DNA of 64,000 bases from a virus (lineage: Duplodnaviria; Caudoviricetes): IMG/VR virus record IMGVR_UViG_3300033066_002255, one strand, 5' to 3'. The translations under genes were made by a program, and so were the position numbers. How positions within the stretch are numbered: the stretch's first letter is position 1; each line of letters opens with the position of its first letter. Below, in pieces: positions 1 through 44,424 of this stretch. The notes beneath the pieces are model-generated. The model ran no database searches. It worked only from the letters and a program-made list of their open reading frames with translations, and was not told the DNA's origin.

Positions 1-119
1 TCTGCAACAGTTAAATTAAATTCATTAGATGATAAAAACACAGCGGTGGGCATAAGTTTTTGTAATGATTTGCCAACCATGCCTGAGCCTCCTGTAACTA
101 CAATTCTTTTATATTTCAT
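1..119 (-). CDS. fcl: GDP-L-fucose synthase / NAD-dependent epimerase, N-terminal fragment (runs off the window)
   Basis: Not in the ORF track. Manual translation from ATG at 119 gives MKYKRIVVTGGSGMVGKSLQKLMPTAVFLSSNEFNLT, a Rossmann TGGSGMVG motif. Follows a GT11 gene. Confidence 0.65.
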   Translation of the reverse strand, partial: MKYKRIVVTGGSGMVGKSLQKLMPTAVFLSSNEFNLTVA

Positions 120-121
120 AA

Positions 122-910
122 TTAAATTTTTATCCAACCTTCACAATAAAGGTCATTTGTATTATGATTTTCATATGCTGGACCAAACCATTTTGACGGA
201 GCGATAACTTTTTTTTCTGGATTTGCATTTAACCATGCAGCCCACCAACTAAATGTAGAATTACAAATAATATTATCATTACAATGACTCATAATATATA
301 AATCTTCATAATCTTTATTCCCCTCTATAAATACAAACTTCTCTGGTAAATCTGGGAAATTTGCTTTACACCATGCGATATCATCTGAGAATATTAAGAA
401 TACAGTATCTTTGGGCATTTGTTTAATAGCCTTCATATAATAATTCATATTTTGCGTTGGATGATGGTCTGGTGAATTTAAATAATCACCTCTTCTAACA
501 TGAATAGAACAAGTGTGTTTTGTTTCTAATATATTTTTTATTTCTTCTTTTATGTCAACATCGTAAGATGTAAATAAATTTCTTATTTCATCTTCATATT
601 CTTTAAAGTATTTTTCAGTTTGAAAATAGCCATAAAGTAATATGTTTTTATCTGGGGAGTCTTTTAATTCATTATAATGAAATCCACTTTCATTTATCTG
701 TATTCTTCCGTTTCCTTGTGGTGTGTGATACAAATCAATATTTTTGAATATGTTATCATTATAGACAGTAACATGCTGATGTTGACCGCTTGATTCTTGG
801 CAATTAAATCCTACTGACTTATTATGTTTTTTACCATATGCATATGTAGCTGCAACTTGAAACATATAGTTTCCAAGCCCTCCCATTAGTATCGCTGAAA
901 CTTCATTCAT
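122..910 (-). CDS. GT11 family alpha-1,2-fucosyltransferase
   Basis: GGLGNYMFQ, GYFQTEKYF, SIHVRRGDY, FSDDI and NSTFSWWAAWL motifs. Confidence 0.9.
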   Translation of the reverse strand: MNEVSAILMGGLGNYMFQVAATYAYGKKHNKSVGFNCQESSGQHQHVTVYNDNIFKNIDLYHTPQGNGRIQINESGFHYNELKDSPDKNILLYGYFQTEKYFKEYEDEIRNLFTSYDVDIKEEIKNILETKHTCSIHVRRGDYLNSPDHHPTQNMNYYMKAIKQMPKDTVFLIFSDDIAWCKANFPDLPEKFVFIEGNKDYEDLYIMSHCNDNIICNSTFSWWAAWLNANPEKKVIAPSKWFGPAYENHNTNDLYCEGWIKI

Positions 911-914
911 AATT

Positions 915-1607
915 TTAAGGTTTAATTAATATCCCCTGTCCAGTAGGAGATGTATAGATTAATAAATTTTTAGAGGCAGCAAAAGCATCATGAGATTTCT
1001 TTTGATTTTCATGTCCAGGAAATCCATAGTCATCAAAAATAACTATTGCGCCAGAAACTAATTTAGGCCAAAAGAACTCAAGAGCTTCAGCTTCTGGTTT
1101 AACAGTATTCATATCAATACTTAAAAAACTTACTTTTTCAATATGTACTGTAGAAAGAACATCTGGAATAGCTCCTTTTATTATTTTAGCACTTTCATTT
1201 TTCGAAAATCTTTCAACTATTTCATCGTGCCAAGGATTATTTTTTGTATAGTAATCTCCAGTTCTTAAAAGTTCTTCTTGAGTACTATGCTCTTTTGATA
1301 ATCCTTCAAAAGTATCTATTAAATAATAATTTTTAGAAAGACTTTCGAAATTTAAATAAGAAAGTATCGCAGAAGCAAATAGACCAAAACCTGCTCCGCA
1401 CTCTACAAAATCTCCATCTAAATTCTCAGCTTGTTTAGCTGCCCACAATAAAGTGTGTATTCTCCAGCGTATATCATAACTTGAGTCAGCTAATAAAAGT
1501 CTTCCCTTGTCTGCTTTTACACATTCAGCATAAGCTTCTATAAATTTATCTTCTAACATAAAACCAGTATTTGCATTGGTTCCAACTATATCTCCAGTAT
1601 AAAGCAT
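915..1607 (-). CDS. TylF/MycF-type sugar O-methyltransferase
   Basis: GDFVECG, DTFEG, SIDMN and FDDYG motifs. Confidence 0.85.
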   Translation of the reverse strand: MLYTGDIVGTNANTGFMLEDKFIEAYAECVKADKGRLLLADSSYDIRWRIHTLLWAAKQAENLDGDFVECGAGFGLFASAILSYLNFESLSKNYYLIDTFEGLSKEHSTQEELLRTGDYYTKNNPWHDEIVERFSKNESAKIIKGAIPDVLSTVHIEKVSFLSIDMNTVKPEAEALEFFWPKLVSGAIVIFDDYGFPGHENQKKSHDAFAASKNLLIYTSPTGQGILIKP

Positions 1608-1609
1608 AA

Positions 1610-2224
1610 TTATTGTATTTTTTTTAAATATCCATTAACGTTGAATGTAGCATTCTTACCGAAAAAGTCACACCATTTTCTATCAATTACATAATCAGAA
1701 TTATTATTCATGAATTCTGCTATTGCCTTTAATGGTCCTCCATTATAATCAGGATAGCCTAATTCATCTATGATACCATCCTCTACTATAAAATAAGAAT
1801 TTTTTGTTGGTATAGTTTTAAATTTATTTAAAGATGCTATAACATCTTCATAAGTATGAGAACCATCATCTATAACTAATATAGTATTAAACCCCTCAGC
1901 ATTTTTTAAATCATAAGATTGATATCCTCCAAGAAATCTTTTTATTCTTGAATGATTTTTGACAAGTTCGCTGTCAACCATATCAACTATGTCAATAGTA
2001 TGAATTTCTCCATGACCTATTTTATCCATAATATCAGCCATATACAAAGCGCCTCCACCAGCATTAGTACCAACTTCTATTATTAAATCTGGTTTAATTT
2101 CATTTATAATCATTTGGTAAATTATATAATCAAATGGGCATCTTATATACCTTACACCTCTATAAGAAACATTGTGGTGTCCACTGCAAATGCTCTTAAC
2201 ATCAAAATTTACTGAATTATCCAT
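1610..2224 (-). CDS. CmcI family (cephalosporin hydroxylase / rhamnosyl O-methyltransferase-like) methyltransferase
   Basis: KPDLIIEVGTNAGGGA, IDDGSH, YFIVEDG, GP..A motif and C-terminal NGYLKK. Confidence 0.85.
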   Translation of the reverse strand: MDNSVNFDVKSICSGHHNVSYRGVRYIRCPFDYIIYQMIINEIKPDLIIEVGTNAGGGALYMADIMDKIGHGEIHTIDIVDMVDSELVKNHSRIKRFLGGYQSYDLKNAEGFNTILVIDDGSHTYEDVIASLNKFKTIPTKNSYFIVEDGIIDELGYPDYNGGPLKAIAEFMNNNSDYVIDRKWCDFFGKNATFNVNGYLKKIQ

Positions 2225-2852
2225 TTATTTTTTTAGCTATACAAATTATAAAATCTTTTTTACCAATGTTTTCAACAACATTATGATTAACATAATCTTG
2301 ATAAAAATATTTCTCAACTTCAAAATATCCTTCTAAAAGCTTAGGTATAACATCTTCTGTAATATAAAAAGTTCTATGAAAAATTCTTGAATATTCATTT
2401 TCAACTTGATTGTATGGAGTTGAAAATATAAGCTTTCCATCATCTTTTAATGCCTTATGCATTATAGGGATAAGAAGCTTAATTTCTTCTGGAGTAAAAT
2501 GTTCAATTGTTTCAAACGAAACAATTTTATCAAATTTGTTTTCTTCAGTTACATCTAATAAATTTGCCTCAATAAATGTAGCATTTGTTTCTCCAGAATA
2601 TCTCTGATTTATTTCTTCTATGGTAGTTTTATCTATGTCATATCCATAAACTTCTTTACATTTTTTACTTAACATTAAAGACCCATAACCTGAGCCACAT
2701 GCCATATCGCCAATAATATCATTCTCCTCAATTAAAGTGGCGGCTAATTCATATCTCTTATAGTGGGATTTTTGATACATGTCAAATGAATCATAATTCA
2801 TATTATAAAAATTTATGTCCATTCTTTCACCATTATTTTCTAAATTTTTCAT
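2217..2852 (-). CDS. Class I SAM-dependent methyltransferase
   Basis: HYKRY, DMACGSGYG, FDKIVSFETIEH and LIFSTP motifs. Confidence 0.88.
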   Translation of the reverse strand: MKNLENNGERMDINFYNMNYDSFDMYQKSHYKRYELAATLIEENDIIGDMACGSGYGSLMLSKKCKEVYGYDIDKTTIEEINQRYSGETNATFIEANLLDVTEENKFDKIVSFETIEHFTPEEIKLLIPIMHKALKDDGKLIFSTPYNQVENEYSRIFHRTFYITEDVIPKLLEGYFEVEKYFYQDYVNHNVVENIGKKDFIICIAKKING

Positions 2853-2862: not shown

Positions 2863-4377
2863 TTAGTTGTTAAATTTATTTTTTATATACTCTGTTTCTT
2901 TTTCTTTTATTTCATTTGAAATCATGTTATTATATTGATTATCCCAAATTCTATTTACTACATTTGTTGAAGTTAATATGATTGGGTCTCCAAATTCTTG
3001 TTGCATTCTAATATAATAATCACAATCCATCATCCAAATTATATTTTCGTCAAATCCAACATTATAAGGCTTTAAGAAACTTATAACACTTGGAGAGCTA
3101 ATTGTATTAACTCCACTTAATAATTTTTCTTTATCAAATTCAGGCATAAAATTATTATAAAAATCTATTCCATTTTTAGAATGCTCACAAGAAGATACAA
3201 GCCATTTTTTGTCTGGATTGTTATCAAAACTTTCTTTTATATCTTTCAGGCTATCTGTAGAATAAAGAAAATCATCTTGAAATAATATTTTTACAATTCT
3301 ACCTGTAGAAAATTTTATTGCATTATTAATATTAGCAGAGGAATTTCCTAAATTTTCAGAATTTCTAAAATATTTTATATCAAGAAATTTAGAATATTTC
3401 TTGCATAAATCTTTTATAGAATTATCATTACTATGGTCAGAAACTACTATTTCAAAGTCCGTAAAACTTTGACTTCTTAATTTTTCGAAGCTAAATTCAA
3501 GAAATTCTGAACCAAAACCATGCATTTCATAGGCTGGTATTGCTATTGAAATTTCTTTAGGAACTTTTCTGTTTGATGTTGTATCCAAAATTTTATTTAT
3601 TACTATTTCTAATCTATCAATAATAGTAATATATTTTTTTGATAATTCATAGTTTTTATTTATAAATTCTAATTTTTCACTATAAGTATTTTCATTTATA
3701 GAATTACATACTTCTATAATTTCTTCTAAAGAATTGACAATAAAAAATCCACGTGTATCAAAAAAATCTCCTATGTTATCACAACCCCAAAAAATTGGAA
3801 TAGTTTTAGTTGTAAGACAATCTATTAATTTTTCTGTAAAAAAATTTTTTTGTTTAGAGTTTTCTATACAAATATGAAATTGAGACTCAAAAAGCGGATT
3901 TTTACTTTCATCTAATATCTTATTTTCAAAGCTATTTTCTACCCCTCCATATTTACTGATATAAAAGTCTTTATTATTTTTTATTTTATTTTGTTTATAA
4001 TGTACTTTTTTTCTCAACAAATGTCCTTTAGTTATTTCCTTAAAACCTGTCAAATGAGAAATCTGAAATTTTTTAACGCTTGACAAATCAAAATTATTAA
4101 TCCAAGAAGTACCAAACTCTAAAAAATAAGCATTTGGACAACTTAGTAATATTTCTTCATCGTATGTAATAATAGCATCAAATTTTTCTTTATTATTTAA
4201 AACATGAGATTTGAATTTGCTTATCTCTTCTGATTCTTTAACCCATAATATTTTAAAACTATTATTGTTTGGATTATATCCATTAAAATTATCTACAAAT
4301 AGTTCTATAGGTCTATCAAACTCTACTGAAATATTTGGCCATCCTGATTCACTCGTACTATTAATTATTTGTTTCAT
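2863..4377 (-). CDS. Bifunctional glycosyltransferase: GT10-like (alpha-1,3/4-fucosyltransferase) fused to GT2
   Basis: N-half ICIENS..NFFTEKLIDC..TIPIFWG; C-half ISIAIPAY, VVSDHS, FQDD. Confidence 0.75.
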   Translation of the reverse strand: MKQIINSTSESGWPNISVEFDRPIELFVDNFNGYNPNNNSFKILWVKESEEISKFKSHVLNNKEKFDAIITYDEEILLSCPNAYFLEFGTSWINNFDLSSVKKFQISHLTGFKEITKGHLLRKKVHYKQNKIKNNKDFYISKYGGVENSFENKILDESKNPLFESQFHICIENSKQKNFFTEKLIDCLTTKTIPIFWGCDNIGDFFDTRGFFIVNSLEEIIEVCNSINENTYSEKLEFINKNYELSKKYITIIDRLEIVINKILDTTSNRKVPKEISIAIPAYEMHGFGSEFLEFSFEKLRSQSFTDFEIVVSDHSNDNSIKDLCKKYSKFLDIKYFRNSENLGNSSANINNAIKFSTGRIVKILFQDDFLYSTDSLKDIKESFDNNPDKKWLVSSCEHSKNGIDFYNNFMPEFDKEKLLSGVNTISSPSVISFLKPYNVGFDENIIWMMDCDYYIRMQQEFGDPIILTSTNVVNRIWDNQYNNMISNEIKEKETEYIKNKFNN

Positions 4378-6145
4378 TTAATTCTTTTTTTAATAAATTA
4401 TATGATTCTTCATTTATATCAATATTATTTAAAGCTTCTTTATACAATAATTTATGGTACAACCCAAATCTTTTTATAGCCCAATCTGCATATGAAGAAG
4501 AAGCATTTTCAAGTCCTTTATTATAAAATTTCATTCCAGAACCTACACCTGCAAAATGCATTAAATTTTCTCCGAAATCCATATCTGAATTTAATTCAGA
4601 AAATTTATTTTTCCTATTACCTTCTAATGTCAAGCCCCCAACTTCATCAGGATTTAAGAAATAAATCTTCCCTTTGTTATTTAAAATATCAAATGATACT
4701 GGGTCAAAATAATCTAATATAGGATGTCCTAAAGGATTATGATATCCAACTATCATTTGCCTTAATGTATTAAAATCATATGTACTAATTTTGTTTTTAT
4801 TAAATGCATAAAAATATGTTTGAGATACGTCTGATAACTGAGACAGGTCTGTTCTACCATTCATATTATTCTTATAACATCTAACTGGACCTATTAGGTC
4901 ATAGCCTTCATTTATTTTATCTCTCAACAAAGAAAGAGATTCTTTTCTGAAAATTACATCACTATCAAAATGAACAATATAGTTATAGCCTTTTGAAAAT
5001 TCTTTAATAACTTTAGCGCCAATATGAGCAGTACCAAGATGACCATTTTTAAAGCATTCCTTTAATTCAAGGTCTTCACTTAATTCAATGTATTCTACAT
5101 TTTTAAACTTTCCAACTTCTTTAAAGTCTTTTGCTGTACCAAAAATATGTACAATTTCATTAGGATGATACAGAAAAAAAGATTCTAAACATTTTTTTAA
5201 TATTAAACCACATCCATAAGCTTCAGTGAATATATATACTTTATTGTCTATTTTAGTATCATTTATAAACAAAGTACTTTTTTCTTTTATAAAATTAAGT
5301 CTATTTTTTTTATTCATAGCTCTAAATTGAAGCATATAATTTTCCATTTGATATAACAAAGGATTTGTAGCATGTGTTGGCGGGTGCCACATATGAAGCA
5401 TATCTATTGGAGGATTGTCAGCATAATCAACTTCACCTAATAGTGTAATTGCTTTATCCCAAATTATTTGGTCTTCAGCAGCATATCCCCAAAACAATTC
5501 AGGGTCAAAACCTCCAATTTGATTATAAAAATCTTTTTCAAATATAATAGAACCTCCTTTTGACCCAAATATAGCTGGAACAGATACTCCATGACTTAAT
5601 TCTGTAAGGGCATTATAATCAATTTTATTTGATAATACCTCATCCGTTAATTCCTTAGACATATACAAAACCCTTCTTTTACCATATGTTTGCATAGCCT
5701 TAGATTCTTTTAAATTTTCATATAATTCTATAAAAAAATTTTCTTTTACTAAAATATCTAAATCATGCAATAAATAGTACTTTGCAGAGTTTGAATATTT
5801 TACTCCAAAATTATAAGCAAAACTTCTGCTATATTGTTCAGTTACATTTCCAGGAGTCCATAAATAATTTACAGACCCAACTAATAAATCTTTATTATCT
5901 GGGTTTTCACTATGTTCAACAAAAGTTAAACAAAATCTTTTTGGCGTAGGAGAGTTAATTTTAAAAAAATCAAAAGCTTTTTGGAAAGAATTTATTAAAG
6001 GCGATATAAATTCTTTTCTACCTCTAAAACCAATTATTATATTAATGTCATATTCTTCATTGTTTAATAAGAAAACTTCTGATTTTTCTCTTATTTCACT
6101 ATAGCTAAATTCATTTTTTTTTAATGATTCAAATATATTTTCCAT
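4361..6145 (-). CDS. Two-domain glycosyltransferase (GT2/GT7-C-like plus a second GT-A domain)
   Basis: SRSFAYNFG, HDLD, GGFDPELFWGYAAED, HMWH; second domain HFDSD...HFAG. Confidence 0.7.
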   Translation of the reverse strand: MENIFESLKKNEFSYSEIREKSEVFLLNNEEYDINIIIGFRGRKEFISPLINSFQKAFDFFKINSPTPKRFCLTFVEHSENPDNKDLLVGSVNYLWTPGNVTEQYSRSFAYNFGVKYSNSAKYYLLHDLDILVKENFFIELYENLKESKAMQTYGKRRVLYMSKELTDEVLSNKIDYNALTELSHGVSVPAIFGSKGGSIIFEKDFYNQIGGFDPELFWGYAAEDQIIWDKAITLLGEVDYADNPPIDMLHMWHPPTHATNPLLYQMENYMLQFRAMNKKNRLNFIKEKSTLFINDTKIDNKVYIFTEAYGCGLILKKCLESFFLYHPNEIVHIFGTAKDFKEVGKFKNVEYIELSEDLELKECFKNGHLGTAHIGAKVIKEFSKGYNYIVHFDSDVIFRKESLSLLRDKINEGYDLIGPVRCYKNNMNGRTDLSQLSDVSQTYFYAFNKNKISTYDFNTLRQMIVGYHNPLGHPILDYFDPVSFDILNNKGKIYFLNPDEVGGLTLEGNRKNKFSELNSDMDFGENLMHFAGVGSGMKFYNKGLENASSSYADWAIKRFGLYHKLLYKEALNNIDINEESYNLLKKELNETNN

Positions 6146-6146: not shown

Positions 6147-6833
6147 TTAAAGTAGATATTTTTTTAATAAGTTATATGTATAATTTTTTTTAAGTTGATA
6201 ATTTCTTTTATCTAATATCTTTTTAAATTCACAATTATCAACTTCGTACTTTGAAGTTATTCCCTCAAAAACTATTGGACTATTTTTTTTAAGTATTTGC
6301 ATCATCATTGTAGCTAAATGTAACACTTCAATTCTATTATCAAATGCTATATTTAATTTAACATCTACAACATCATTTTTTTTATATTCTTCAATTATAG
6401 GAGGTAATATTTCTATTAAATCGTCTATGTCTATTAAAAATCTTGTAGTTTCTGGAGAAATTCTTAATTCTAATTCAGATTGTATTTTATTTTTAAAAAA
6501 ATTAAATAAAGTGTGCTGATTATCAGTTTTTCCAACTACAATAGGCAATCTAAATATTATCTTTTTTTTAAAAGAATTACTTATAAGATTTTCCATATAA
6601 TGTTTGTGTTTAACATATTCAGAATTGCAAGATTCTGAATCGTAAATACTACAAGTACTAAAATAAACTAATAAAGAATTTTTATCTAAAGCATTTAATA
6701 ATTCAACTTCTCTCTTAAAAGCTTCTGGATTATTTTCTTTAGAATTAGACACGCCAGAAGCAAAAATAATAATTTCATTATCATTTTCATATTGCTTAAA
6801 AGCCTTAGCTAACATTCCATTGCCAATTACCAT
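6147..6833 (-). CDS. NAD-dependent epimerase/dehydratase-like protein
   Basis: IGNGMLA, FASGVSNS, YFSTCS, YxxHK and FRLPIVVG motifs. Confidence 0.75.
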   Translation of the reverse strand: MVIGNGMLAKAFKQYENDNEIIIFASGVSNSKENNPEAFKREVELLNALDKNSLLVYFSTCSIYDSESCNSEYVKHKHYMENLISNSFKKKIIFRLPIVVGKTDNQHTLFNFFKNKIQSELELRISPETTRFLIDIDDLIEILPPIIEEYKKNDVVDVKLNIAFDNRIEVLHLATMMMQILKKNSPIVFEGITSKYEVDNCEFKKILDKRNYQLKKNYTYNLLKKYLL

Positions 6834-7576
6834 TCTAATGTTTCTAAAGGTTCATTTTTTTGTTTAGAACGAACATAATTTGCCAATTCTATTTGACGAG
6901 ATTCATTTAAGGCTCCATCTCTACTTGAATTAGCTACATTATAAACATATAAAATATCTGATATATATCTACTTTTATCTCCAGCTAATTCAAGCATAGG
7001 CAACATAATTGCTTGGTCTCCAGCTGTATCTAGCCATTCTCCATCTTCTCTTGTAAAGTTATTTTTATCTAATTTTAACAAAAGCTCTCTTCTCCAAGTT
7101 CTTAAATGAGAGGCAAGCCATTGATATTCTTTAAAAGAGTTATTTTTAATTACTTCATCTGGATATGCCCTATAAATATTAGATACACTTCTATATGGAA
7201 ATTCTTCGTAAGTTCCATATGTCATCCACACTTCTCCAGAATTATAAACTTCATTAAGCTTTTGCAATACTTTACTATTTTTGAACCAATCATCTCCGTC
7301 TATAGATACTATTATAGAGCCTGGTTTTGATAGTTCAGTTAACCATAAAAAATTAGCTACCTGAGGAAGGCGTTTATCATTTTGATATATTTTTAAATTT
7401 TCAAAATCATTAGCGTACTTTTGAGCAATTTCATAAGTTTTATCTGTCGATAATGCATCAACAAGAATAACTTCAAAATTATCATATTTTTGAGTTAAAC
7501 ATGTACTTAGGCACTTTTCAATCCATTCTTCATGATTGCATGTATCTACAATTATACTAAAAAAATTATTCATCAT
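6827..7576 (-). CDS. GT2 family glycosyltransferase
   Basis: VDALSTD and IDGDDW motifs; paralog of the next gene (SHLRT, LYVYN). Confidence 0.85.
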   Translation of the reverse strand: MMNNFFSIIVDTCNHEEWIEKCLSTCLTQKYDNFEVILVDALSTDKTYEIAQKYANDFENLKIYQNDKRLPQVANFLWLTELSKPGSIIVSIDGDDWFKNSKVLQKLNEVYNSGEVWMTYGTYEEFPYRSVSNIYRAYPDEVIKNNSFKEYQWLASHLRTWRRELLLKLDKNNFTREDGEWLDTAGDQAIMLPMLELAGDKSRYISDILYVYNVANSSRDGALNESRQIELANYVRSKQKNEPLETLEW

Positions 7577-8316
7577 TTATAGTTTTCTATTTTATTAAAA
7601 CTTTTTTTATTACTTAATTCAACATGTATTCCAGTTTGTAATGCTTGATTTACTCTATCATCAGAAATAGGATTATTCCTATTATAAATATATAAAATAG
7701 TATCATTAAATATAACTTTATCTGGACCTGACATTTCTAGTATTGGAAACATGATAGCTACATCGTATGTCATTTTATAAAATTCCCCAGAAGAGTCTTT
7801 CATACAAGCAAAATCTGTATCTTGCTCCTGAATTTTTTGATAAATTCCTGCTCTAAATGTTCTTAAATGAGATACACGAAAGGGAGATTTTCTAATATTA
7901 GAAAATTCTTCTTTTGAATATTCAGAAGCAAACCCTCTTCTGCCATCAGTCCAATTAGCTTGTCCATACATAATCCAACAATCAGTTTTATTATATGTTT
8001 CATTTATATATGATAAAACATTTTTATTTGAAAGCCAGTCGTCTCCATCTACTAAAACAACAATATCATCTGCATCACAATAATTCATAATTGCATTATG
8101 TAAATTTTCAAGAGCAGTTTTTCTTACCTCATTTTTTATTATAGTAACACGTGAATCATCTTTTGGTAATTTATCAAAAGATGAATCGGTAGATGCGTCA
8201 TCAATAAAAATAATTTTAAAATTATCATATTTCTGTGAAACCAGGGAGGCTACACAATTTTCTAAAAAATCTCCTGGATTATAAAAAGGAGTTATAACTA
8301 CTATTCTATTTTTCAT
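7573..8316 (-). CDS. GT2 family glycosyltransferase
   Basis: ITPFYN, IDDASTD, VDGDDW, SHLRT motifs. Confidence 0.88.
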   Translation of the reverse strand: MKNRIVVITPFYNPGDFLENCVASLVSQKYDNFKIIFIDDASTDSSFDKLPKDDSRVTIIKNEVRKTALENLHNAIMNYCDADDIVVLVDGDDWLSNKNVLSYINETYNKTDCWIMYGQANWTDGRRGFASEYSKEEFSNIRKSPFRVSHLRTFRAGIYQKIQEQDTDFACMKDSSGEFYKMTYDVAIMFPILEMSGPDKVIFNDTILYIYNRNNPISDDRVNQALQTGIHVELSNKKSFNKIENYK

Positions 8317-36536: not shown

Positions 36537-37871
36537 ATGGCAAGCGGTCAAACAAGAACAGTTGGGGCAATTATCCCAAAGAAAAGTGCTGTATCTGGTA
36601 AAATACCAACAGGTACAACTGCTGGGGAAATTTTCTCTAATCTTACAGATAAAAAGCTGTGGGGATATGACGGTGTCAATATATTTGAATATGGTTCTGA
36701 TACTTTTTTAAATTTAACTGGAGGAACTATATCTGGAGATATAATAGTAAATTCAATCAGTGCAAACACTTATTTAGGTTTACCAGAGGACATATCCCTA
36801 ACATCTTTTACATATAATAGTGCAAATACTTTTACACTAACAAATAATACAGGAGGAACACTTTCTGCTATTATTAATGTAATGACTGGCCTTACAGTTA
36901 ATGGTGGTCTTAGCGCTACAACATATACTGGTGATACTATTACATTAAATACTAGTGGTTCTGGAACTGTTGGTTTATTATTAAATACAGTTAGTAACCA
37001 AGATTCAAAATTACATTTTTCAACAAATAACGCTGCTTCAGCTAGAGGTAGATTATATGTTGAAGATGCATCGCAAACATTTAATTTATATACATTTAAT
37101 AGTGATACTATTTTTTGGAATGGTAATGGACTTGCTCAATCAAAAACACTTACTTTGTATACTGATACTACAGCTAAATTTGAAAATAAACTTACAGTTG
37201 GTTCTTTAAATATACAAAATATACCTAGCGGTGTTAGTGTTTATAACTTAGCTATTGATTCTAATGGCAATGTTATTTCAGCAATTACTAATTCAATTGA
37301 TGTTACACGTGTACAACCAGGTTCAAATATTTCAACAGGAGGAACTGGGAATTTTCCAGTAGTGAATTTAGTAGATTCTCCATTTGTAAATAATATTAAT
37401 TTCTCAGGCACTGCAATTGGTGGAACAATACAAGCTGGTGCTGTTACTGCAACTTCATTATCTGCTGGTAGTATATCTGCTGTAACTTATTATGGTAATG
37501 GTATAAATTTAACAGGAATAACTGGAGCTTTTGGAATTACAATAGATGGTGCTGGGAGTGATATAACACCTGGTCAAAAAGGATTTGTAGTAGCTCCATA
37601 TAACATGGGAATAACTGGATGGGATTTAATTGCAAACACATCTGGGAATTGCGCAATTGATATTTGGAAAAGCGCAACAATACCAACCATATCTGATTCA
37701 ATTACTGGTCTTAGTTATCCAGACTTAATAAATAATCAATTTAATCAAAATAGCACTGCTCTAGTGAGTTGGGCTACGGGAATAACCAATGGCGATATTA
37801 TTGCCTTTAATGTTATATCAGCAACAAGTGTTTCGAGAATAACATTAACATTAAAAACAATTAAAAAATAA
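36537..37871 (+). CDS. Putative tail fibre protein
   Basis: GEIFSNLTDKKLW head; TRVQPGSNISTGGT module; C-terminal GITIDGAG...DIWK domain. Confidence 0.7.
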   Translation: MASGQTRTVGAIIPKKSAVSGKIPTGTTAGEIFSNLTDKKLWGYDGVNIFEYGSDTFLNLTGGTISGDIIVNSISANTYLGLPEDISLTSFTYNSANTFTLTNNTGGTLSAIINVMTGLTVNGGLSATTYTGDTITLNTSGSGTVGLLLNTVSNQDSKLHFSTNNAASARGRLYVEDASQTFNLYTFNSDTIFWNGNGLAQSKTLTLYTDTTAKFENKLTVGSLNIQNIPSGVSVYNLAIDSNGNVISAITNSIDVTRVQPGSNISTGGTGNFPVVNLVDSPFVNNINFSGTAIGGTIQAGAVTATSLSAGSISAVTYYGNGINLTGITGAFGITIDGAGSDITPGQKGFVVAPYNMGITGWDLIANTSGNCAIDIWKSATIPTISDSITGLSYPDLINNQFNQNSTALVSWATGITNGDIIAFNVISATSVSRITLTLKTIKK

Positions 37872-37875: not shown

Positions 37876-39996
37876 ATGTCAATAAAAGCGATAAATTTCA
37901 AATTTAATGGGACTACAACTGGAATTACAACATATGATTCCTCATTGACGAATCTTGGAACATTAATTAAACAATATTCAGGAGTTACTAATCAAGATGT
38001 TTTTGCGGGTCCAGCCAAGATAGGTATGGCTAGACCAATGGAACAATCAACTGCCATACCTTCAATATATCCACATGTTATAACATTTTCAGATAGTATT
38101 GATTGGGTTTTTTTAGCAGATAATGCTACAGCTGCAGCAACAAGAAGGATTGTAATGTATGAATATAATAAAAATACATCAGAATTTAATTGGAAAGGTT
38201 TTATTACACTTACTTATCCAGCAGCAACAGTAGGACATACTATAAGAGGCTTTAAGGTTGTTAGAGAATTATACACCTCTGGAACAACAGCTGCAAGTGG
38301 GACAGCTGTTACTGGAACAGGTAGTGCATGGAGTACAGATAGAATGTCAGTTGGCTGCAGAATAGGTTTTGGTTCTTCAGACCCAGCTCAAGTTACAGAA
38401 TGGGCTAATATAAGTGCTGTTGGAAGCGATACTGGAATCACACTTTCTACAGCTCTATCTGGAACATATACTGCTGGAACACCATATGTTATTGAAGATA
38501 TGATTATTATTACTTCAACCGCAAATACAACTGCAACAAATGGTGGTTTATTTATTACTAAAGGTATTGCGGCAAATATATTTACATCCGTTGGAACCAC
38601 AATACCAGCAGCTGTAGCAACAGATAACATTAGAGCTGTATATTGGCTTGCAGATGCTGCTGTAGTTACTAATACTGCACCATGTGGAGCAGCTATACAA
38701 GAAAAAACATCATGGGTTTCTGCTAGTACTTACGTTTTAGATGTAGCTACAGCAAAGGTTTTTGTTTATAATTTTAGAAAAGCATTAACATTAGCTTCAG
38801 GAAAGGATACAACAACGCTATTGCTAAAGACAGGTAATCAGGCAGTTACAGGTACAATTTCCACAACAAATAATGGTCGTCTTGGAGTTCTTAATCATGG
38901 GCCAGGAATTGGAGTCGAATCACTTTATTTTGTTACGACAACAAGATGTTATAGAGCAGCTGTTTCAGCTATAACAAATTCATCCACATCTTGGATTAGT
39001 GATGTTATGGTAGAGATTCCACCAGGAGGAGTAAATACCTACTTAGCTACAGGTGCATTATCATCTTGTGAATTATCTTCTGGTATTGATAGGTTAGTTA
39101 TAGCATCAACAGGAACAGCTGGGGCTAGAAGCTATGTTACAGAGTATAATACAATTTCTACTCCATTTAATCATATTTTTTTAAATGATGATAAACAACA
39201 AGACCAATCTATTTCTGATTCTGGAGGAGTTGCTCATCCAGTTATTTTAGCTTCTCCTATGTCGGTATGGTCTGAAAATGGTGTTTTGTATTTAGCTAGA
39301 ATAGGTACTACTGCTGCGATTAATCAGGTATATACTTTGCCAATAGGAGCACATCAAACATATGCTATTGATGATAGTCAAATGTTAATTACGCCTAAAA
39401 TTGATATAAGTGATTCAAATAAATTATATAGTTTTACCCCAAAATATATTAGTAAACTTGGAACTGATACATTTTCTTTGCCATCAGAACCTTTTAAAAT
39501 GTTCTATAGGACTACTGGAATTTCAGATAATACTGGTAGTTGGACCGAATTAGATTATTTTGGAGACTTAACAAGTGTTAGTGCAAGTGAAATTCAGTTT
39601 ATGTTTATTTTTAAAATTTTAGGTACAACGTGTATTCCGTCTAGGATTATGGGTTTTACATTAACTTATGAAGATAATACAACAGATAGTCATTATGAAC
39701 CAAGTGTAGGAAATTCTTCTGTTACTAATAGAATTTTTGCTTATAGACAAAGAACTTTATGGAGTAGTAATATACCAAATTTAAAAATAAGAATATACAA
39801 TGCTGTAACAGGTAGTTTGGTTTTAGAAGATGATATATTGTCTTCAGCATTTGGTACATTTGAATATTCAACAGACGGAGGCTCAAACTGGTTGTCATGG
39901 AATGCAACAGCTGATGTTGTTTCAAATTATATAAGATATACAGCCACATCTCTTCCAAGCGGAATAAGAGTGCGTTCATTATTAACACAAGCATAA
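37876..39996 (+). CDS. Large putative virion structural / receptor-binding protein
   Basis: Thr/Ser/Gly-rich; GTAVTGTGSAW motif; FEYSTDGG.NW Asp-box-like motif. Confidence 0.65.
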   Translation: MSIKAINFKFNGTTTGITTYDSSLTNLGTLIKQYSGVTNQDVFAGPAKIGMARPMEQSTAIPSIYPHVITFSDSIDWVFLADNATAAATRRIVMYEYNKNTSEFNWKGFITLTYPAATVGHTIRGFKVVRELYTSGTTAASGTAVTGTGSAWSTDRMSVGCRIGFGSSDPAQVTEWANISAVGSDTGITLSTALSGTYTAGTPYVIEDMIIITSTANTTATNGGLFITKGIAANIFTSVGTTIPAAVATDNIRAVYWLADAAVVTNTAPCGAAIQEKTSWVSASTYVLDVATAKVFVYNFRKALTLASGKDTTTLLLKTGNQAVTGTISTTNNGRLGVLNHGPGIGVESLYFVTTTRCYRAAVSAITNSSTSWISDVMVEIPPGGVNTYLATGALSSCELSSGIDRLVIASTGTAGARSYVTEYNTISTPFNHIFLNDDKQQDQSISDSGGVAHPVILASPMSVWSENGVLYLARIGTTAAINQVYTLPIGAHQTYAIDDSQMLITPKIDISDSNKLYSFTPKYISKLGTDTFSLPSEPFKMFYRTTGISDNTGSWTELDYFGDLTSVSASEIQFMFIFKILGTTCIPSRIMGFTLTYEDNTTDSHYEPSVGNSSVTNRIFAYRQRTLWSSNIPNLKIRIYNAVTGSLVLEDDILSSAFGTFEYSTDGGSNWLSWNATADVVSNYIRYTATSLPSGIRVRSLLTQA

Positions 39997-40319: not shown

Positions 40320-40628
40320 ATGGAAGCAAGAACAGGTCAAACAATTATAGAAAATTTTTTTTCTTTAGATGTGGATAATAATCCATTATCTGGAGCTACT
40401 TTTGATGTAGTGTCAATAAAAGATGGATTTCCATTTACAGGAATAACTGTATCTACAACTTTATCAGATGCTTCACTTGGTCTATTTTATGCGAGTTGGT
40501 CAGCAGATACAACTGGAGATTATCAACTTTATATAAAAAATAATTTAACAAATGTAATTTATATTACTGATAGAGTTAGTGTTTTACCAGATAGCGAATT
40601 TGACCAAAATATATTTATTGGTTTATAA
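40320..40628 (+). CDS. Small Ig-like putative virion protein
   Basis: PLSGATF...GLFYASW..DTTGDYQL. Confidence 0.6.
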   Translation: MEARTGQTIIENFFSLDVDNNPLSGATFDVVSIKDGFPFTGITVSTTLSDASLGLFYASWSADTTGDYQLYIKNNLTNVIYITDRVSVLPDSEFDQNIFIGL

Positions 40629-40654: not shown

Positions 40655-41800
40655 ATGAGTACTTTAATATATCTTGAGCCTAGAGACAATCCTGAATATT
40701 TTTTCAGGCAATTAATTCATGATATAAATACCAATTTTAGCGCAGGAACATCTGGCTCTGGAGGTGGCAGTCCTATACAAAATGGTTTAAATACCTACAC
40801 TGGAGGAACAGTATCTGCACAAACAATAAATGTATCAGCTCTAACTATAAATAATATTTATGTTAGTGGAGGTTCATTGTTTAATACTATTAGTGGAACT
40901 TCAGCATTTATTTCTAATGCTAATTCTACAACATATACTTCAGCACAAACAGGAACTTTATTACATATAATTTCTAATGGTTCCACAAATGGTCGTATAA
41001 GTTTAGATACATATGCGGCAGCCAATACATTTGGAGCTGTATTTCAAGGAAGAAAAGCAAGAGGGACAAATACGGCTCCAAGCGCAGCTCTTAAGGATGA
41101 TACATTAGCATTGATTGGTGGTGATGGCTATGGAACAACAAATTTCCACGGTTCATCAATTGGCGCATTCTTGGTTAAAGCTGAACAAACTTTAACAGAT
41201 ACAAGTGCTCCAACTTATCTTTCATTTTTTGTTACTCCGACAGGTTCAACAGCATCTACTGAAAAATGGAGAATAAGTAGTAATGGAAACTTAAGCAATA
41301 ATTTAACAGCAGGAACTGCAATATTTACAATTAAAAATGCAAGTGGTAATACTGAGTCTGCTCAGAATTTATTTGAAGGACAGAACTCAGGAGGAACAAT
41401 AACTTCTTTTATTAGAGCTGATGGTTCTATGAGCGCAGTAACTTTATCGGCTTCAAGTGTGTATGCAGATAATTTATTAACAAAGAGTTTATTTGTAACA
41501 GCATCTACAACAACAGCAATTGTAAGTGTTGGAGCAAATTTAGTAAATTGTTCATTTACAGCTTTAACTTCATCTTTGACAATTCAAACAACTGGTACAG
41601 CAAATAATTTTGATAAAATGGTTGTAAGAATTAAAGATAATGGAACAGCAAGAGCAATTACATTTGATTCAACTTATTTTGAAGCTAAGGGGCAAGCACT
41701 TCCAACAACAACTGTAATATCCAAGGTTTTAACAGTTGGTTTTATATATGATTCTATTACAGGAAAGTTTGGATGTGTATCAGTTGCACAAGAAATTTAA
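40655..41800 (+). CDS. Putative tail fibre protein
   Basis: IQNGLNTYTGGT module; RKARGT..AP; EKWRISSNGN; tip domain IKDNGTARAITF...LPTTT. Confidence 0.7.
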   Translation: MSTLIYLEPRDNPEYFFRQLIHDINTNFSAGTSGSGGGSPIQNGLNTYTGGTVSAQTINVSALTINNIYVSGGSLFNTISGTSAFISNANSTTYTSAQTGTLLHIISNGSTNGRISLDTYAAANTFGAVFQGRKARGTNTAPSAALKDDTLALIGGDGYGTTNFHGSSIGAFLVKAEQTLTDTSAPTYLSFFVTPTGSTASTEKWRISSNGNLSNNLTAGTAIFTIKNASGNTESAQNLFEGQNSGGTITSFIRADGSMSAVTLSASSVYADNLLTKSLFVTASTTTAIVSVGANLVNCSFTALTSSLTIQTTGTANNFDKMVVRIKDNGTARAITFDSTYFEAKGQALPTTTVISKVLTVGFIYDSITGKFGCVSVAQEI

Positions 41801-41819
41801 TAAATAAAAAAATAAATAT

Positions 41820-42032
41820 ATGGGACTATTTGACCAATCAGAGAAAGCTAATGCCGCTCAACAAATAAAAATATGGTATGATACTTCTATTAGTAGTATT
41901 AATCAAGCTATATTTTATAAGGAAAATTTAGTTAAACAATTAGAATTGATGAAAACAAATTCTGATTATAATCAGCAAGATTGTGATGATGTACAAGCTT
42001 TGATTGATGATATAAATTCAAAATTATCTTAA
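41820..42032 (+). CDS. Small helical hypothetical protein (possible fibre chaperone)
   Basis: 70-aa ORF between fibre genes. Confidence 0.55.
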   Translation: MGLFDQSEKANAAQQIKIWYDTSISSINQAIFYKENLVKQLELMKTNSDYNQQDCDDVQALIDDINSKLS

Positions 42033-42039
42033 TAATTAA

Positions 42040-44424
42040 ATGGCAACAAGAACTGTAACAGTAGGTGGCGGAAATTATAATTCAATTGCAACTTGGATGG
42101 AAGGTGCTGTTCCAACAACAGCAGATGCTATTGTGTTTTCAGCTAATTCTGGAAATTTAACAATAAATGTTTCCAGTTCAGCTTCAACGGTTAATTTTAC
42201 AAATTATACAGGTACAGTCACAGTTAATGCTACTTGGTTTGTATTTGGAGATATAAATTTTGGAACAGGTGGATACAATTACGCAGGTTCAAATTCACTT
42301 GCGCCATCTGCAACATCAACAATAACATCAAATGGAACAGCTTGGAAAGGAAATATTCAACTTCTTGGTACAAATAAAACATACACACTTGCAGATGATA
42401 TGACCTTAAATGGTACATTAACTATGCAAAACACTACTACTGCTGCTATTAATGGGAATAGATTATTTTGTAAAGGAAATCTAACAGTTGTGTCTGGTAA
42501 ATATTCGGGTACAACAGAAGTTGTAATGTATGGAACAGGAACAATTTCTGGTGGAAATTCAGCTGCTTATTTAATGAATGACTTAACAATTGCGCCAACT
42601 GGAACAACAACTTTTGGTTCTTCTTTTGTTTATAACACAGGAACTTTAAAGTATGTATCAGGCACAGTTATTACAACAGGAAGTACTTTAACTATTGCTG
42701 CTTCTACAACATTAAACACGAGTGGTATAATTTGGAACAATATAAATTTCACTGCTAATTCAACAATAGCATTGTTAAGTGATTTAGTATCTATTGGCAC
42801 TGTTTCTCACTACATTGGAAGTACAATAACATTCAATAATTTTAATTTTTATATTGGTGGAAATATTTCTTTATCGAATGGTAGGATATTTAATGGCACA
42901 ACTAAAATAATATTTAATACTTCAACTTCACAAAATATTTACGTAGATGGTGCTTATTTAGGAGGTATAAGAAATGATTTAGATATTAATGCAACGGGTA
43001 CTGTAGATATTAACTGGCTTTCATACGGTGGTGGCACACTAAATTATATAGCAGGTAATGTTATCTTCTCAGGTTCTAAAAATTTAGCTATTAATGCTTC
43101 TTGCACATTAGATGTAAGTGGAATTAATTGGAGTAATATAGGTACGGGTTATTCATCTACAATAACATTAGCATCTGATTTAACTTGCGAAAATACATTT
43201 AATATAGCACTCGGAAGTCTTATTGTTAACGGCTCAACACTTTACTGTAAAGGTAGTTTAATATTTTCTTCTGGAGGGGGTAATAGTGTAAGGGGAACAA
43301 CAAATATTGAATTTACTGGCAGCGCATCAGGTACTTGGATGTCAAATACTACGAATAATGCGTGGAGAAATAATGTTACTATAAATAAATCAGGTGGCAC
43401 GTTAACAATAGGAACACTTTTAGCGTATAATACAGGTACATTAACTTATTTAAGTGGTAATGTTATTACCACAGGTTCAACATTAAATATGGTTTTAGTA
43501 GATAATAACACAATACTTGATACAAGTGGAATGATTTGGAATAATATAACAGTAACAGAAGCTGCAAGTAGAATACTTAATCTTGCAAGTGATTTAAATT
43601 ATTCTGGAACAGGAAAATTCGGTTCAAGTTCTCAATTGCTTACATTAAGTGGTGCAAATATTAATGTACTTGGAAGTGGAATTTTTACGGCAAATGATGG
43701 TCACGGTTCACCAGTAAGTGGTGTAACAACACAAGTTAATTTACTTGGCGATAATGTTAGTTTTAATGATTGTGCTTGGAGTGGAGGTAATTTTTCAGCT
43801 CAATGGGCACTTCCAATTAATATTAATACAAATGGTACTTGTACAATTACTGGAAGGCTTACACCAACAAATAATTTTATTCTTAATTATTCAGCTGGAA
43901 CTGTTTTATTTGCTGACGGTTTTAATCCTAAATCACTTCAGCCTTTGGCAGGTTCTAATACACAATATAATTTAAGCGGAATGACTTGGGACAGTCCAAT
44001 AACAGGGGCTTCTGGAACACTTACGTTTAATACTCCTTTTTTAAGTAATTCAAGTCTTGTTTTTGGTACAAGTGGCAATTTAATATTAGATGGAAATGCA
44101 GGAGCAACATTCGCTTCTTTAACTGGAGTAACAGCTGGAAGGTTTATGACCTTAAAAAATGGAAATATATATAATATTACAAATAATTTAACAATAAGCG
44201 GTACATCTATTTCAAAAATAACTTTGCAATCTTCAGCTTCTTCATCTGCATTTTTTAATCTTCAATATGGAGCAACTCAAAATGTAAAAAATACAAATGC
44301 AACTTGGATTAATTCAATAGGTGGACAAACTATTTATGTGAATGCTGGTAGTACACTTTCCAATACAGTTAATTGGAATGTTGGAACATATTATGAGCCA
44401 AGCAATTTCTTAATGATGTTTTAA
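42040..44424 (+). CDS. Beta-helix/solenoid putative adhesin or tailspike
   Basis: GNYNSIATW..G.VP...D.IVF start; repeats YNTGTL.Y.SG.VITTGSTL and SG(I/M).WNNI. Confidence 0.65.
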   Translation: MATRTVTVGGGNYNSIATWMEGAVPTTADAIVFSANSGNLTINVSSSASTVNFTNYTGTVTVNATWFVFGDINFGTGGYNYAGSNSLAPSATSTITSNGTAWKGNIQLLGTNKTYTLADDMTLNGTLTMQNTTTAAINGNRLFCKGNLTVVSGKYSGTTEVVMYGTGTISGGNSAAYLMNDLTIAPTGTTTFGSSFVYNTGTLKYVSGTVITTGSTLTIAASTTLNTSGIIWNNINFTANSTIALLSDLVSIGTVSHYIGSTITFNNFNFYIGGNISLSNGRIFNGTTKIIFNTSTSQNIYVDGAYLGGIRNDLDINATGTVDINWLSYGGGTLNYIAGNVIFSGSKNLAINASCTLDVSGINWSNIGTGYSSTITLASDLTCENTFNIALGSLIVNGSTLYCKGSLIFSSGGGNSVRGTTNIEFTGSASGTWMSNTTNNAWRNNVTINKSGGTLTIGTLLAYNTGTLTYLSGNVITTGSTLNMVLVDNNTILDTSGMIWNNITVTEAASRILNLASDLNYSGTGKFGSSSQLLTLSGANINVLGSGIFTANDGHGSPVSGVTTQVNLLGDNVSFNDCAWSGGNFSAQWALPININTNGTCTITGRLTPTNNFILNYSAGTVLFADGFNPKSLQPLAGSNTQYNLSGMTWDSPITGASGTLTFNTPFLSNSSLVFGTSGNLILDGNAGATFASLTGVTAGRFMTLKNGNIYNITNNLTISGTSISKITLQSSASSSAFFNLQYGATQNVKNTNATWINSIGGQTIYVNAGSTLSNTVNWNVGTYYEPSNFLMMF

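Follow-up and report, generated by a model that had tools for sequence, protein, structure and literature searches.

Does a short peptide motif, repeated in the tail proteins of a bacteriophage, serve as a signal for the sugar-modifying enzymes encoded by the same genome? The question is raised by a 64,000-nucleotide stretch of DNA (the window, i.e. the whole stretch analysed) from an uncultured jumbo phage. The initial annotation had proposed that a hydrophobic-[ST]-[GA]-x-[TS] motif on its structural proteins may be a phage-specific glycosylation sequon.

An order-specific motif in the tail, neck and fibre proteins

All the pentapeptides listed in the initial annotation were found at the ORFs named. 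The motif was counted in a tail set of 12 tail, neck and fibre ORFs, lying between 27005 and 44424 and totalling 4,624 aa, the expected counts being obtained from local shuffles in blocks of 10 to 50 aa. In these ORFs, [ST][GA]x[TS] was seen 125 times vs. 45-50 expected (ca. 46), with a z of 11.7-13.4 (ca. 12), and h[ST][GA]x[TS], where h is hydrophobic, 77 times vs. 15-16 (z ca. 16). The other 50 ORFs of the window (15,411 aa) have no excess (19 vs. 24.4 expected). The enrichment in the tail set lies far above what S/T/G composition gives. None of the enzymes of the window shows an excess, and the scarcity previously noted by eye was confirmed for the DNA polymerase (0), terminase (1), PhoH (0) and vWA (1) proteins. 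The motif is equally flat in the major capsid protein (2 vs. 2.1), the portal (1 vs. 1.2), the tube (0) and the tape-measure-like protein (4 vs. 3.8).

Concerning the residues, enrichment at position 0 is restricted to Ser (z 11) and Thr (z 6.3), the latter making up 43% of the residues there, and Asp and Asn, which commonly replace them in turns, are depleted. Gly (z 9.2) and Ala (z 7.9) are the only residues enriched at +1, and both flanks (-1 and +4) are hydrophobic, Asp not being favoured at -1. Of the [TS] initially given for +3, Thr was retained (z 14.2) and Ser hardly so (z 2.3), Val and Ile not being enriched; the sharper form is h-[ST]-[GA]-x-T.

Ser and Thr make up 19-27% of the tail proteins, which are also rich in Gly and Ala, and (GSS)n repeats provide much of the raw count of G003-type relatives; this would suit an artefact of S/T/G-rich composition, low complexity or a DNA-level word. 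However, the z of ca. 12 survives shuffles down to 10-aa blocks, and the same residue classes in permuted orders are about two- to three-fold rarer (just 36-78 matches). Codon usage is the same inside and outside the motif, which is therefore not a DNA word, no collagen-like run occurs in the window, and the equally S/T-rich proteins of T4 and of phage immuto are flat or marginal. There is next to no chance of such an artefact, refuted by block shuffles, codon usage and position-specific residue enrichment. As a whole, the results establish h-[ST]-[GA]-x-T as a genuine motif, specific in its order and acting at the protein level, and it is concentrated in the outward-facing parts of the tail: the non-core region of the sheath, the neck, the small tail proteins and the fibres.

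Ten of the twelve carriers are encoded on the plus strand. A 95-aa protein (27005..27292; 4 motifs vs. 1.3 expected), with orthologues in relatives G001 and G003, precedes the gene of the T4 gp13-like neck or head-tail adaptor (27302..28471; phrog_211; 4 vs. 1.3, and 4 vs. 0.4 for the five-residue form), and the tail sheath lies further downstream (30505..32871; phrog_23, 6.8e-70; 12 vs. 4.0). The densest carrier is a 162-aa fibre-like protein (32985..33473; 10 vs. 0.7, z 11.4) with no relative in Pfam, PHROG or PDB; its 100 homologues among 1.8 billion proteins include many giant fibres with tandem modules. It is followed by a 487-aa fibre with two copies of a ca. 70-80-aa module (33507..34970; 17 vs. 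6.2), homologous at 9.6e-21 to the 444-aa, one-module fibre (36537..37871; 20 vs. 4.9, z 7.8; C-terminal domain phrog_35197, phrog_10330). Between these two lie the minus-strand genes of a BppU_N-like small tail protein (35003..35383; PF10651, 3.5e-05; 2 vs. 0.4) and of a 150-aa tail protein (35406..35858; 3 vs. 0.3, z 5.1; orthologues in G001 and G003). The remaining carriers are a 706-aa tail protein (37876..39996; 14 vs. 6.9; orthologue in G003), a 102-aa protein (40320..40628; 4 vs. 0.5, z 4.9), a 381-aa fibre (40655..41800; 18 vs. 5.4, z 6.0; C-terminal domain phrog_3030) and a 794-aa repetitive tail protein (42040..44424; 17 vs. 10.6, and 9 vs. 3.4 for the five-residue form). The repeats of the latter look beta-helix-like by eye.

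The description of these carriers as unrelated had to be narrowed, since four of them (at 32985, 33507, 36537 and 40655) share a repeated fibre module, but the other eight, devoid of any BLAST relation to it, keep an excess of their own (60 vs. 27.3, z 6.9). No homology was detectable between the sheath and the module (hhalign probability of 0.1%).

Placement of the motif and its distribution among phages

The fibre module (ca. 70 aa) is found in tandem and carries the motif at fixed places, with four to six motifs per unit, some only 5-6 residues apart; one 3,222-aa fibre has up to ca. 36 repeats and 233 motifs. The sheath sites were mapped on a predicted structure (pLDDT 77) that matches T4 gp18 in 9mkb (Foldseek, 1.7e-22). 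Burial in beta-cores had been put forward as an outcome that would speak against a sequon: in the model, 10 of the 12 sites fall within the non-core region 90-480 (3.7 expected there) and are predicted to lie mainly in coil or at loop-to-strand junctions, not in strand cores, the Thr at +3 often being the first residue of a strand. About eight sites are conserved in position across 41 orthologues and carry the excess, and the number of variable sites is about that given by chance, i.e. there is no turnover beyond chance.

All 63 IMG/VR relatives with a sheath identity of at least 51% display an excess, of ca. 1.5- to 3.5-fold, the strongest being found in G001 and G002 (91%- and 100%-complete, respectively), while two relatives at 31-33% identity have none. 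There is no excess in T4 (44 vs. ca. 50 expected), in the P2 fibre (0 vs. 4) or in the structural module of cyanophage S-SCSM1 (38 vs. 33), and that of Flavobacterium phage immuto and of Microcystis phage Mel-JY01 is marginal (1.3-1.5x). Clusters of glycosyltransferase (GT) genes also occur in S-SCSM1, immuto and Mel-JY01 despite their little or no excess, so that co-occurrence of GT genes and motif carries little weight. No GT-less member of the lineage was found, the apparent one having a glycan island of its own, which includes a true protein O-glycosyltransferase of the TibC/Aah type that is missing from the lineage of the window. Two sub-lineages share the motif, which is equally strong whichever island they carry, yet their islands are non-orthologous and the presence of no enzyme tracks the motif; consequently, no conserved enzyme accounts for the conserved motif.

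These data may be read as a purely structural strand-loop-strand signature, a short loop closing onto a beta-strand, in which the small residue packs tightly and the Thr begins the next strand; it would be a building habit of the fibre modules and outer tail domains of this lineage. Such a role is a serious contender, almost as likely as a sugar-attachment signal. The fixed positions in the tandem module, the hydrophobic flanks, the strand-starting Thr of the sheath model, the conserved sheath sites, the independence of motif strength from island type and the flat capsid, portal and tube all fit it. The glycan island would then have other targets, e.g. intermediates of host LPS, capsule or glycoproteins, in line with the GT10/GT11/GT2 clusters of cyanomyoviruses, which have been read as host-surface modification (PMC12801897). 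Nevertheless, a turn preference would also enrich Asn-Gly, Asp-Gly and Val/Ile at +3, which is not seen, and the beta-rich, S/T/G-rich proteins of T4, P2, S-SCSM1 and immuto show no or marginal excess. Moreover, the motif occurs in folds without detectable mutual homology, and an operon devoid of transmembrane or lipid-carrier proteins would have to borrow host machinery for a host-glycan role.

The glycan island and a candidate sugar-acceptor signal

The island is essentially a minus-strand operon of tightly overlapping genes, the first of which encodes a thioredoxin (9023..9328; PF00085, 1.6e-26). Then come an ORF without Pfam or NCBIfam match (8319..9023), two GT2 glycosyltransferases (7573..8316, PF00535, 1.3e-18; 6827..7576, PF00535, 1.2e-18), a second ORF without match in either database (6147..6833; G001 orthologue 43% identical) and a 594-aa multidomain glycosyltransferase-like protein (4361..6145), which has a G001 orthologue, only sub-threshold GT2, GT7C and Galactosyl_T matches and no sequence relative in PDB. 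Further on are a two-domain fusion of GT10 (alpha-1,3-fucosyltransferase-like) and GT2 (2863..4377; PF00852, PF00535; PDB relatives H. pylori FucT 2nzw and chondroitin synthase 2z87), a class I SAM methyltransferase (2217..2852; PF13649, PF08241), a CmcI/rhamnosyl O-methyltransferase-like protein (1610..2224; PF04989, 8.4e-31; NF045824, 2.1e-20, under the equivalog cut-off), a TylF/macrocin-type sugar O-methyltransferase (915..1607; PF05711, 2.9e-13) and a GT11 alpha-1,2-fucosyltransferase-like protein (122..910; PF01531, 1.3e-32; G001 orthologue 52% identical). The glycosyltransferases and sugar methyltransferases announced for this region are therefore confirmed by their Pfam families. As for the GDP-fucose synthase, an SDR-type, GDP-fucose-synthase-like N-terminus is present (3..119, minus strand; VTGGSGMVG Rossmann motif), but the gene leaves the window after 39 codons, which alone are below Pfam significance; fcl-like, colD-like and gmd-like ORFs occupy the syntenic position in G001. 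Outside the operon, a plus-strand gene encodes a GT-B (GT1/GT4-type) glycosyltransferase (14257..15618; PF00534, 7.5e-07, C-terminal half only; G001 orthologue 54% identical).

None of the island proteins has a transmembrane segment, i.e. all are soluble, and Pfam/NCBIfam scans of the window revealed neither flippases nor enzymes that start a glycan on a lipid carrier; hence, a cytoplasmic acceptor is called for. The window contains no recognisable initiating protein glycosyltransferase. The only one recognisable for protein O-glycosylation, a TibC/Aah-type BAHT, belongs to the sister sub-lineage: the G003/G023-type relative encodes, directly downstream of its fibres, a GT2-BAHT fusion scoring 286.9 bits (TIGR04414 cut-off of 200), and no BAHT was found in the window, G001 or G002. 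For one island gene only, the GT2 at 7573..8316, could a relative be detected in that sub-lineage, namely the GT2 domain of the G023 fusion (31.6% identity over 95 aa). Much of the raw motif count of G003-type relatives comes from collagen-like (GSS)n fibres, the obvious substrates of BAHT where it is present, and the window has no such fibres.

We tentatively propose, at somewhat less than even chances, that the motif is a sugar-acceptor signal on the tail proteins. A phage-encoded cytoplasmic enzyme would read it and O-glycosylate the hydroxyl of the Ser/Thr at position 0, or of the Thr at +3, before or during tail assembly, and the island enzymes would build on this first sugar to give a glycan with fucose and O-methyl groups that covers tail and fibres. 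Candidates for the initiating transferase are the 594-aa protein, the GT-B and the two operon ORFs without family. The strong, order-dependent and residue-sharp motif, its non-homologous carriers and its lineage specificity argue for this proposal, as do the predicted loop or junction placement of the sheath sites in region 90-480, the cytoplasmic acceptor called for by the soluble island proteins and the GT2-BAHT fusion as a precedent from the wider lineage. Against it stand the absence of BAHT from the window, G001 and G002, the flat capsid, and the fixed places in the tandem module, which look architectural and would be crowded if all were glycosylated. The restriction of the sheath excess to ca. 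eight conserved positions, variable sites being at chance level, also appears to weigh against it, as would, by analogy with TibC, which takes Ser only, the share of Thr at position 0.

Phosphorylation or acylation of Ser/Thr, or docking of a shared assembly chaperone on outer tail proteins, would account equally well for a motif that is sharply defined by its hydroxyl residues, is present in non-homologous carriers and is specific to the lineage, the link to sugars coming only from gene neighbourhood. Nevertheless, the scanned ORFs of the window matched no family of kinases, acyltransferases or fibre chaperones, and the glycan island is the sole large enzyme set nearby, which makes another reader of this kind improbable. 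The sequon claim itself was refuted by none of the analyses of composition, sheath mapping and GT-less relatives, its link to glycosylation being circumstantial, with no enzyme tracking the motif. A coating of the whole virion finds no support: the capsid, its largest exposed surface, is not enriched, and any coat would be limited to the tail.

Comparison with known glycosylation systems

In Che8-type mycobacteriophages, soluble phage glycosyltransferases are reportedly proposed to decorate their own structural proteins in the cytoplasm, the O-glycans being said to be borne by extensions at the C-termini of capsid and tail-tube subunits, for which no fixed signal of four residues is known. The same kind of enzyme and place of action are proposed here, whereas the capsid and tube of the window are motif-flat and without S/T-rich tails, and the candidate sites would lie within sheath, neck and fibre proteins, in loops away from their ends. 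Mycobacteriophage virion O-glycosylation (Freeman et al. 2023, Cell Host Microbe 31:1216) is cited in PMC12619734 and PMC12801897.

TibC and Aah, of the BAHT family, hyper-O-glycosylate TibA and AIDA-I in the cytoplasm, on many Ser of a repetitive beta-structure; TibC modifies the Ser of N-S-G-G-A-V and T-S-A-A-V-S, i.e. a Ser with Gly or Ala directly after it (PMC4358343). These Ser-Gly-Gly or Ser-Ala-Ala sites agree with the motif at positions 0 and +1, and the sister sub-lineage encodes a true BAHT fused to GT2. However, BAHT is missing from the window and from its complete relatives, this family uses Ser only vs. 43% Thr at position 0 in the window, and the island points to fucose and methyl sugars instead of heptose.

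The major capsid protein of the eukaryotic chlorovirus PBCV-1 bears N-linked glycans made by soluble multidomain enzymes such as A064R. Soluble multidomain glycosyltransferases and methyltransferases, fucose, O-methylated sugars, the lack of a lipid carrier and acceptor signals that are atypical and peculiar to the virus are common features, but in the window the link would be to oxygen and on bacteriophage tail proteins. In the large T4-like aquatic cyanomyoviruses, GT10/GT11/GT2 clusters also occur with sugar-nucleotide enzymes; those of S-SCSM1, P-SSM2 and S-SCSM2R were interpreted as serving host cell-surface or DNA modification (PMC12801897). The structural module of S-SCSM1 differs from that of the window by its lack of motif excess.

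Finally, general O-glycosylation in Bacteroidota is periplasmic, based on a lipid carrier, and uses D-(S/T)-(A/I/L/V/M/T), in which Asp is required at -1. Although position -1 of the window motif is hydrophobic and does not favour Asp, both are short, Ser/Thr-centred signals in which the next residue is small or hydrophobic, and the host phylum is possibly the same.

Motif enrichment in the tail proteins

Across the 12 tail, neck and fibre ORFs located between 27005 and 44424, the motif [ST][GA]x[TS] occurs 125 times, against 45–50 expected from shuffles within 10–50-residue blocks (z 11.7–13.4), and its five-residue form h[ST][GA]x[TS], where h is a hydrophobic residue, 77 times against 15–16 (z ~16); permuted orders of the same residue classes gave only 36–78 occurrences in these ORFs. 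All of the pentapeptides listed in the initial annotation were found in their respective ORFs, and both its proposal of an excess over composition and its impression, gained by eye, that the motif is scarce in DnaE, terminase, PhoH and vWA held on counting. The other 50 ORFs of the window show no excess (19 seen vs. 24.4 expected), terminase and polymerase being at expectation, as are capsid, portal, tube and tape measure.

According to a position-by-position scan, only Ser (z 11) and Thr (z 6.3) are enriched at position 0, where Asp and Asn are depleted, and only Gly (9.2) and Ala (7.9) at position +1. Position +3 is Thr (14.2, against 2.3 for Ser), with no enrichment of Val and Ile, and positions −1 and +4 are hydrophobic. 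The depletion of Asp and Asn rules out an Asx/ST-turn equivalence. Because codon use is the same inside and outside the motif, the signal lies at the protein level, and a DNA-level word is ruled out. A composition or low-complexity artefact is dismissed by the local shuffles, the permuted-order controls and the lack of collagen-like runs in the window; that the excess should be an artefact at all is next to impossible.

That the carriers are unrelated held only in part: four of them have a repeated fibre module of ~70 aa in common, and the other eight (the sheath, the neck protein, four small proteins and the 706-aa and 794-aa proteins) have no detectable relation to the module. These eight alone hold 60 motifs vs. 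27.3 expected (z 6.9) and 26 copies of h[ST][GA]xT vs. 5.2 (z 9.1). A hidden homology of all carriers was rejected, since BLAST connects four proteins only and hhalign of the sheath against the module gives a probability of 0.1%.

An exhaustive search of 1.8 billion proteins provided 100 relatives of the 162-aa protein (32985–33473), many of which are giant fibres made of ~70-residue tandem units with 4–6 motifs each at fixed positions, one of them having 3,222 aa, ~36 units and 233 motifs. These fixed places in a tandem module are a first argument for taking the motif as a purely structural signature. Pfam, PHROG and the PDB gave no relative of the module family, which is nearly confined to phage contigs. 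The fibres had no tblastn match in 50,697 isolated phages, and in PDB sequence searches neither the fibres nor the module profile nor the 594-aa glycosyltransferase (GT)-like protein of the glycan operon had a match. A module scan of 185,579 prokaryote genomes retrieved three short MAG contigs only, so that there is no bacterial adhesin context in which a structural role could be tested. For the 162-aa protein, the AlphaFold monomer prediction (pLDDT 50) was unusable. Should the motif be purely structural, it would still mark an uncharacterised fibre repeat family without Pfam, PHROG or PDB relative.

The C-terminus of the 162-aa protein is a conserved domain of ~60 aa, D-N-x3-L-G-x3-K-R-F-R-x-L-N-x-V-N-G ... 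G-G-x-W (alignment A2), present in ~100 of the 1.8 billion proteins, including the C-termini of long fibres. No relative of it is known in Pfam, PHROG or the PDB, so that it looks like an undescribed family of fibre-end domains. Short contigs (CAYPBW010000113.1, L103, and L102) binned into two bacterial MAGs, one of them of an uncultured Chitinophaga, also bear the fibre module, which hints weakly at a Bacteroidota host, unless these are mis-binned phage contigs.

Phage lineage and sites on the sheath

The 64-kb window is an AT-rich (~30% GC) piece of a T4-like jumbo myophage and contains no tRNAs. The minus-strand glycan operon (3–9328) is followed to its right by PhoH, a GT-B glycosyltransferase and a vWA protein, then by the prohead protease and major capsid protein (22583–24241), the neck, sheath (30505–32871), fibres and small tail proteins up to 44424, the terminase, portal and DnaE-type polymerase and, at the right end, baseplate proteins and a tape-measure-like protein. 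The interval between capsid and neck is interrupted by a pair of genes on the opposite (minus) strand, coding for a phosphoribosyltransferase-domain protein and a 5'-deoxynucleotide monophosphate phosphatase (phrog_318) (25169–25708 and 25683–26234), and a free-standing DUF559/Vsr-like endonuclease (54400–54825, plus strand), with orthologues in the relatives G001 and G003, lies amid the baseplate genes. The plus-strand ORF at 58885–62316 (1,143 aa) probably encodes the tape measure protein; its N-terminal half is coiled-coil-like, its C-terminal half Gly/Ala-rich and very hydrophobic, with many predicted membrane-like segments (residues 777–1044), and a GC-rich stretch at 60–62 kb falls in the same place.

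The nearest isolated phages, Microcystis phage Mel-JY01 and Flavobacterium phage immuto, are remote (~32% sheath identity). As for IMG/VR, 63 relatives were found, with sheath identities of 51–85% and contigs of up to 372 kb. All relatives with a sheath identity of at least 51% show an excess of the motif in the tail module (ratios ~1.5–3.5), and two relatives at 31–33% show none. No excess was found in the T4 structural proteins (44 vs. ~50 expected), the P2 fibre (0 vs. 4) and cyanophage S-SCSM1 (38 vs. 33), and only a marginal one (1.3–1.5x) in immuto (95 vs. 75) and Mel-JY01 (50 vs. 34). The motif thus characterises this lineage; beta-rich virion proteins and phage fibres at large do not share it.

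The sheath belongs to the T4 gp18 family (phrog_23, 6.8e-70; Foldseek to T4 gp18, 1.7e-22). The window sheath has a conserved core plus extra domains; minimal sheaths align over ~280 columns only. Residues 90–480, the non-core part absent from minimal sheaths, hold 10 of its 12 sites (3.7 expected), and in T4 this region forms the outer domains. A sheath model computed with AlphaFold from 27 orthologues (pLDDT 77) places eight position-0 residues in coil, and in it the Thr at +3 often opens a strand; the sites in region 90–480 are predicted to be mostly in coil or at a strand edge. Among the sheath orthologues the motif count is two to three times that expected, with ~8 sites positionally conserved across 41 sequences and a number of variable sites close to chance. 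The hydrophobic flanks, the strand-edge location and the conservation of positions without turnover again suit a structural signature, as does the flat count in the capsid.

Glycan island and candidate enzymes

The gene families on which the glycosylation proposal was built are largely there. Glycosyltransferases of the window comprise a GT11, a GT10+GT2 fusion, two GT2 genes and one GT-B (14257–15618), and the operon has three methyltransferases (TylF-type, CmcI-type and class I), together with the 594-aa multidomain GT-like protein, two family-less proteins and a thioredoxin. The claimed GDP-fucose synthase stands in part: the start of an fcl-like gene is seen at the window edge and the rest of it lies beyond. 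No hydrophobic or membrane segments were found in the ORFs of 122–9328 or 14257–15618, and Pfam and NCBIfam scans revealed no initiating phosphoglycosyltransferase, flippase or polymerase families; the window genes do not make up a self-contained lipid-carrier polysaccharide or O-antigen pathway. This lack of a recognisable initiating enzyme counts on the side of a structural motif.

Many start codons on the plus strand, of structural genes and DNA polymerase alike, are preceded at 10–25 nt by the element TATTTATA on the coding strand (e.g. 20297–20304, 26987–26994, 30185–30192, 32961–32968, 40643–40650, 48817–48824, 58865–58872 and 62371–62378). Its complement precedes the minus-strand genes PhoH and 35003–35383, and it is missing from the island leader region (9329–9445). 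With a window total of 24 vs. 17, not over chance, this promoter-like element is uninformative about the timing of the island.

No single enzyme tracks the motif. Wherever the contig of a close relative spans the syntenic region, it has GT2 and GT11 genes, and no GT-less member of the lineage was found among the relatives examined. The relative G001 (291 kb, 91% complete) is syntenic with the window and has its own island of ~22 kb (186671–208926, loci L088–L089), which includes gmd-, colD-, fcl-, NeuB-, CMP-sugar-synthetase-, radical-SAM- and aminotransferase-like ORFs, assigned by their N-terminal sequences only; glycan chemistry thus varies even between close relatives. G003 (222 kb, 87% complete, sheath identity 54%; loci L067–L078), of a sister sub-lineage, was ruled out as a GT-less phage keeping the motif, since its continuation G023 (loci L098–L099), 100% identical over ~19 kb and extending it by ~13 kb, carries a different island; the "87% complete" G003 genome can thus be lengthened. 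G003-type genomes have two tandem sheath paralogues (208406–210766 and 210820–213459).

The minus-strand island of G023 (IMGVR_UViG_3300008120_009499), located just downstream of giant (GSS)n collagen-like fibres, a type with no counterpart in the window, is headed by a 787-aa GT2-BAHT fusion (L099:3822–6185, minus strand), whose BAHT part is a full-length TibC/Aah-type protein O-heptosyltransferase (TIGR04414, 286.9 bits for a cut-off of 200). RmlD-like, CapD/Polysacc_synt_2 and methyltransferase genes and a 1,121-aa GT1-FkbM fusion complete this island. No BAHT was found in the window (tblastn), in G001 (91% complete) or in the relative G002 (100% complete), and this enzyme, absent from the window, is ruled out as the motif reader there. 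Furthermore, motif-less large phages also carry GT1 or GT2 genes, so that the co-occurrence of motif and glycosyltransferases is lineage-wide and non-discriminating; if the motif is purely structural, it would caution against taking such a co-occurrence as glycosylation. The occurrence of the same motif beneath non-orthologous islands is a further point for the structural explanation, which, all its arguments taken together, has a real chance of being correct and is nevertheless rather doubtful.

A possible acceptor signal and known systems

What favours a trans-acting reader is the specificity of the motif for hydroxyl and small residues, without Asn/Asp or Val/Ile equivalents, its convergence in non-homologous outer tail proteins together with its lineage specificity, and a soluble island that needs a cytoplasmic acceptor, along with the genuine protein O-glycosyltransferase that the sister sub-lineage encodes. 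Glycosylation is the obvious candidate for the role of such a reader. That the motif is a sugar-acceptor signal is a serious possibility, tentatively preferred here. The fuller proposal, in which h-[ST]-[GA]-x-T would be a phage-specific cytoplasmic O-glycosylation signal, lineage-wide, for an island-built fucosylated and O-methylated coat on the tail, is advanced with very slightly greater reserve. An unrecognised initiating transferase within the soluble island would read the motif on folded or folding tail proteins, after which the island would coat the neck, the fibres and the surface of the sheath with a fucosylated, O-methylated glycan, and this throughout a whole lineage of uncultured jumbo phages. 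Another modification or a docking role is improbable.

If the motif is an acceptor signal, it would be the first sequon to be defined for the glycosylation of virions in bacteriophages, and with a signal of four to five residues one could predict phage glycoproteins from their sequences. Big aquatic phages commonly have large, lipid-carrier-free glycosyltransferase islands, for which such a signal would supply a function, and it would also be relevant to the ways in which phage tails escape sticking, proteolysis or recognition.

The papers searched do not describe any sequon for phage virions. To our knowledge, experimental proof of virion glycosylation is limited to a few actinobacteriophages, and no acceptor rule is known. 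In Che8-type mycobacteriophages, glycosylation relies on phage-encoded glycosyltransferases, which are likewise present in the window, but the acceptors are reportedly S/T-rich C-terminal extensions of the capsid and tail-tube subunits, whereas the capsid and tube C-termini in the window are ordinary, with motif counts at expectation. In repetitive beta-structure, TibC/Aah-type enzymes add sugar to a Ser that precedes Gly or Ala (PMC4358343). The enzyme defining this O-heptosylation is absent from the window and was seen only in G023; its Ser-Gly/Ala acceptor is similar to the motif at positions 0 and +1.
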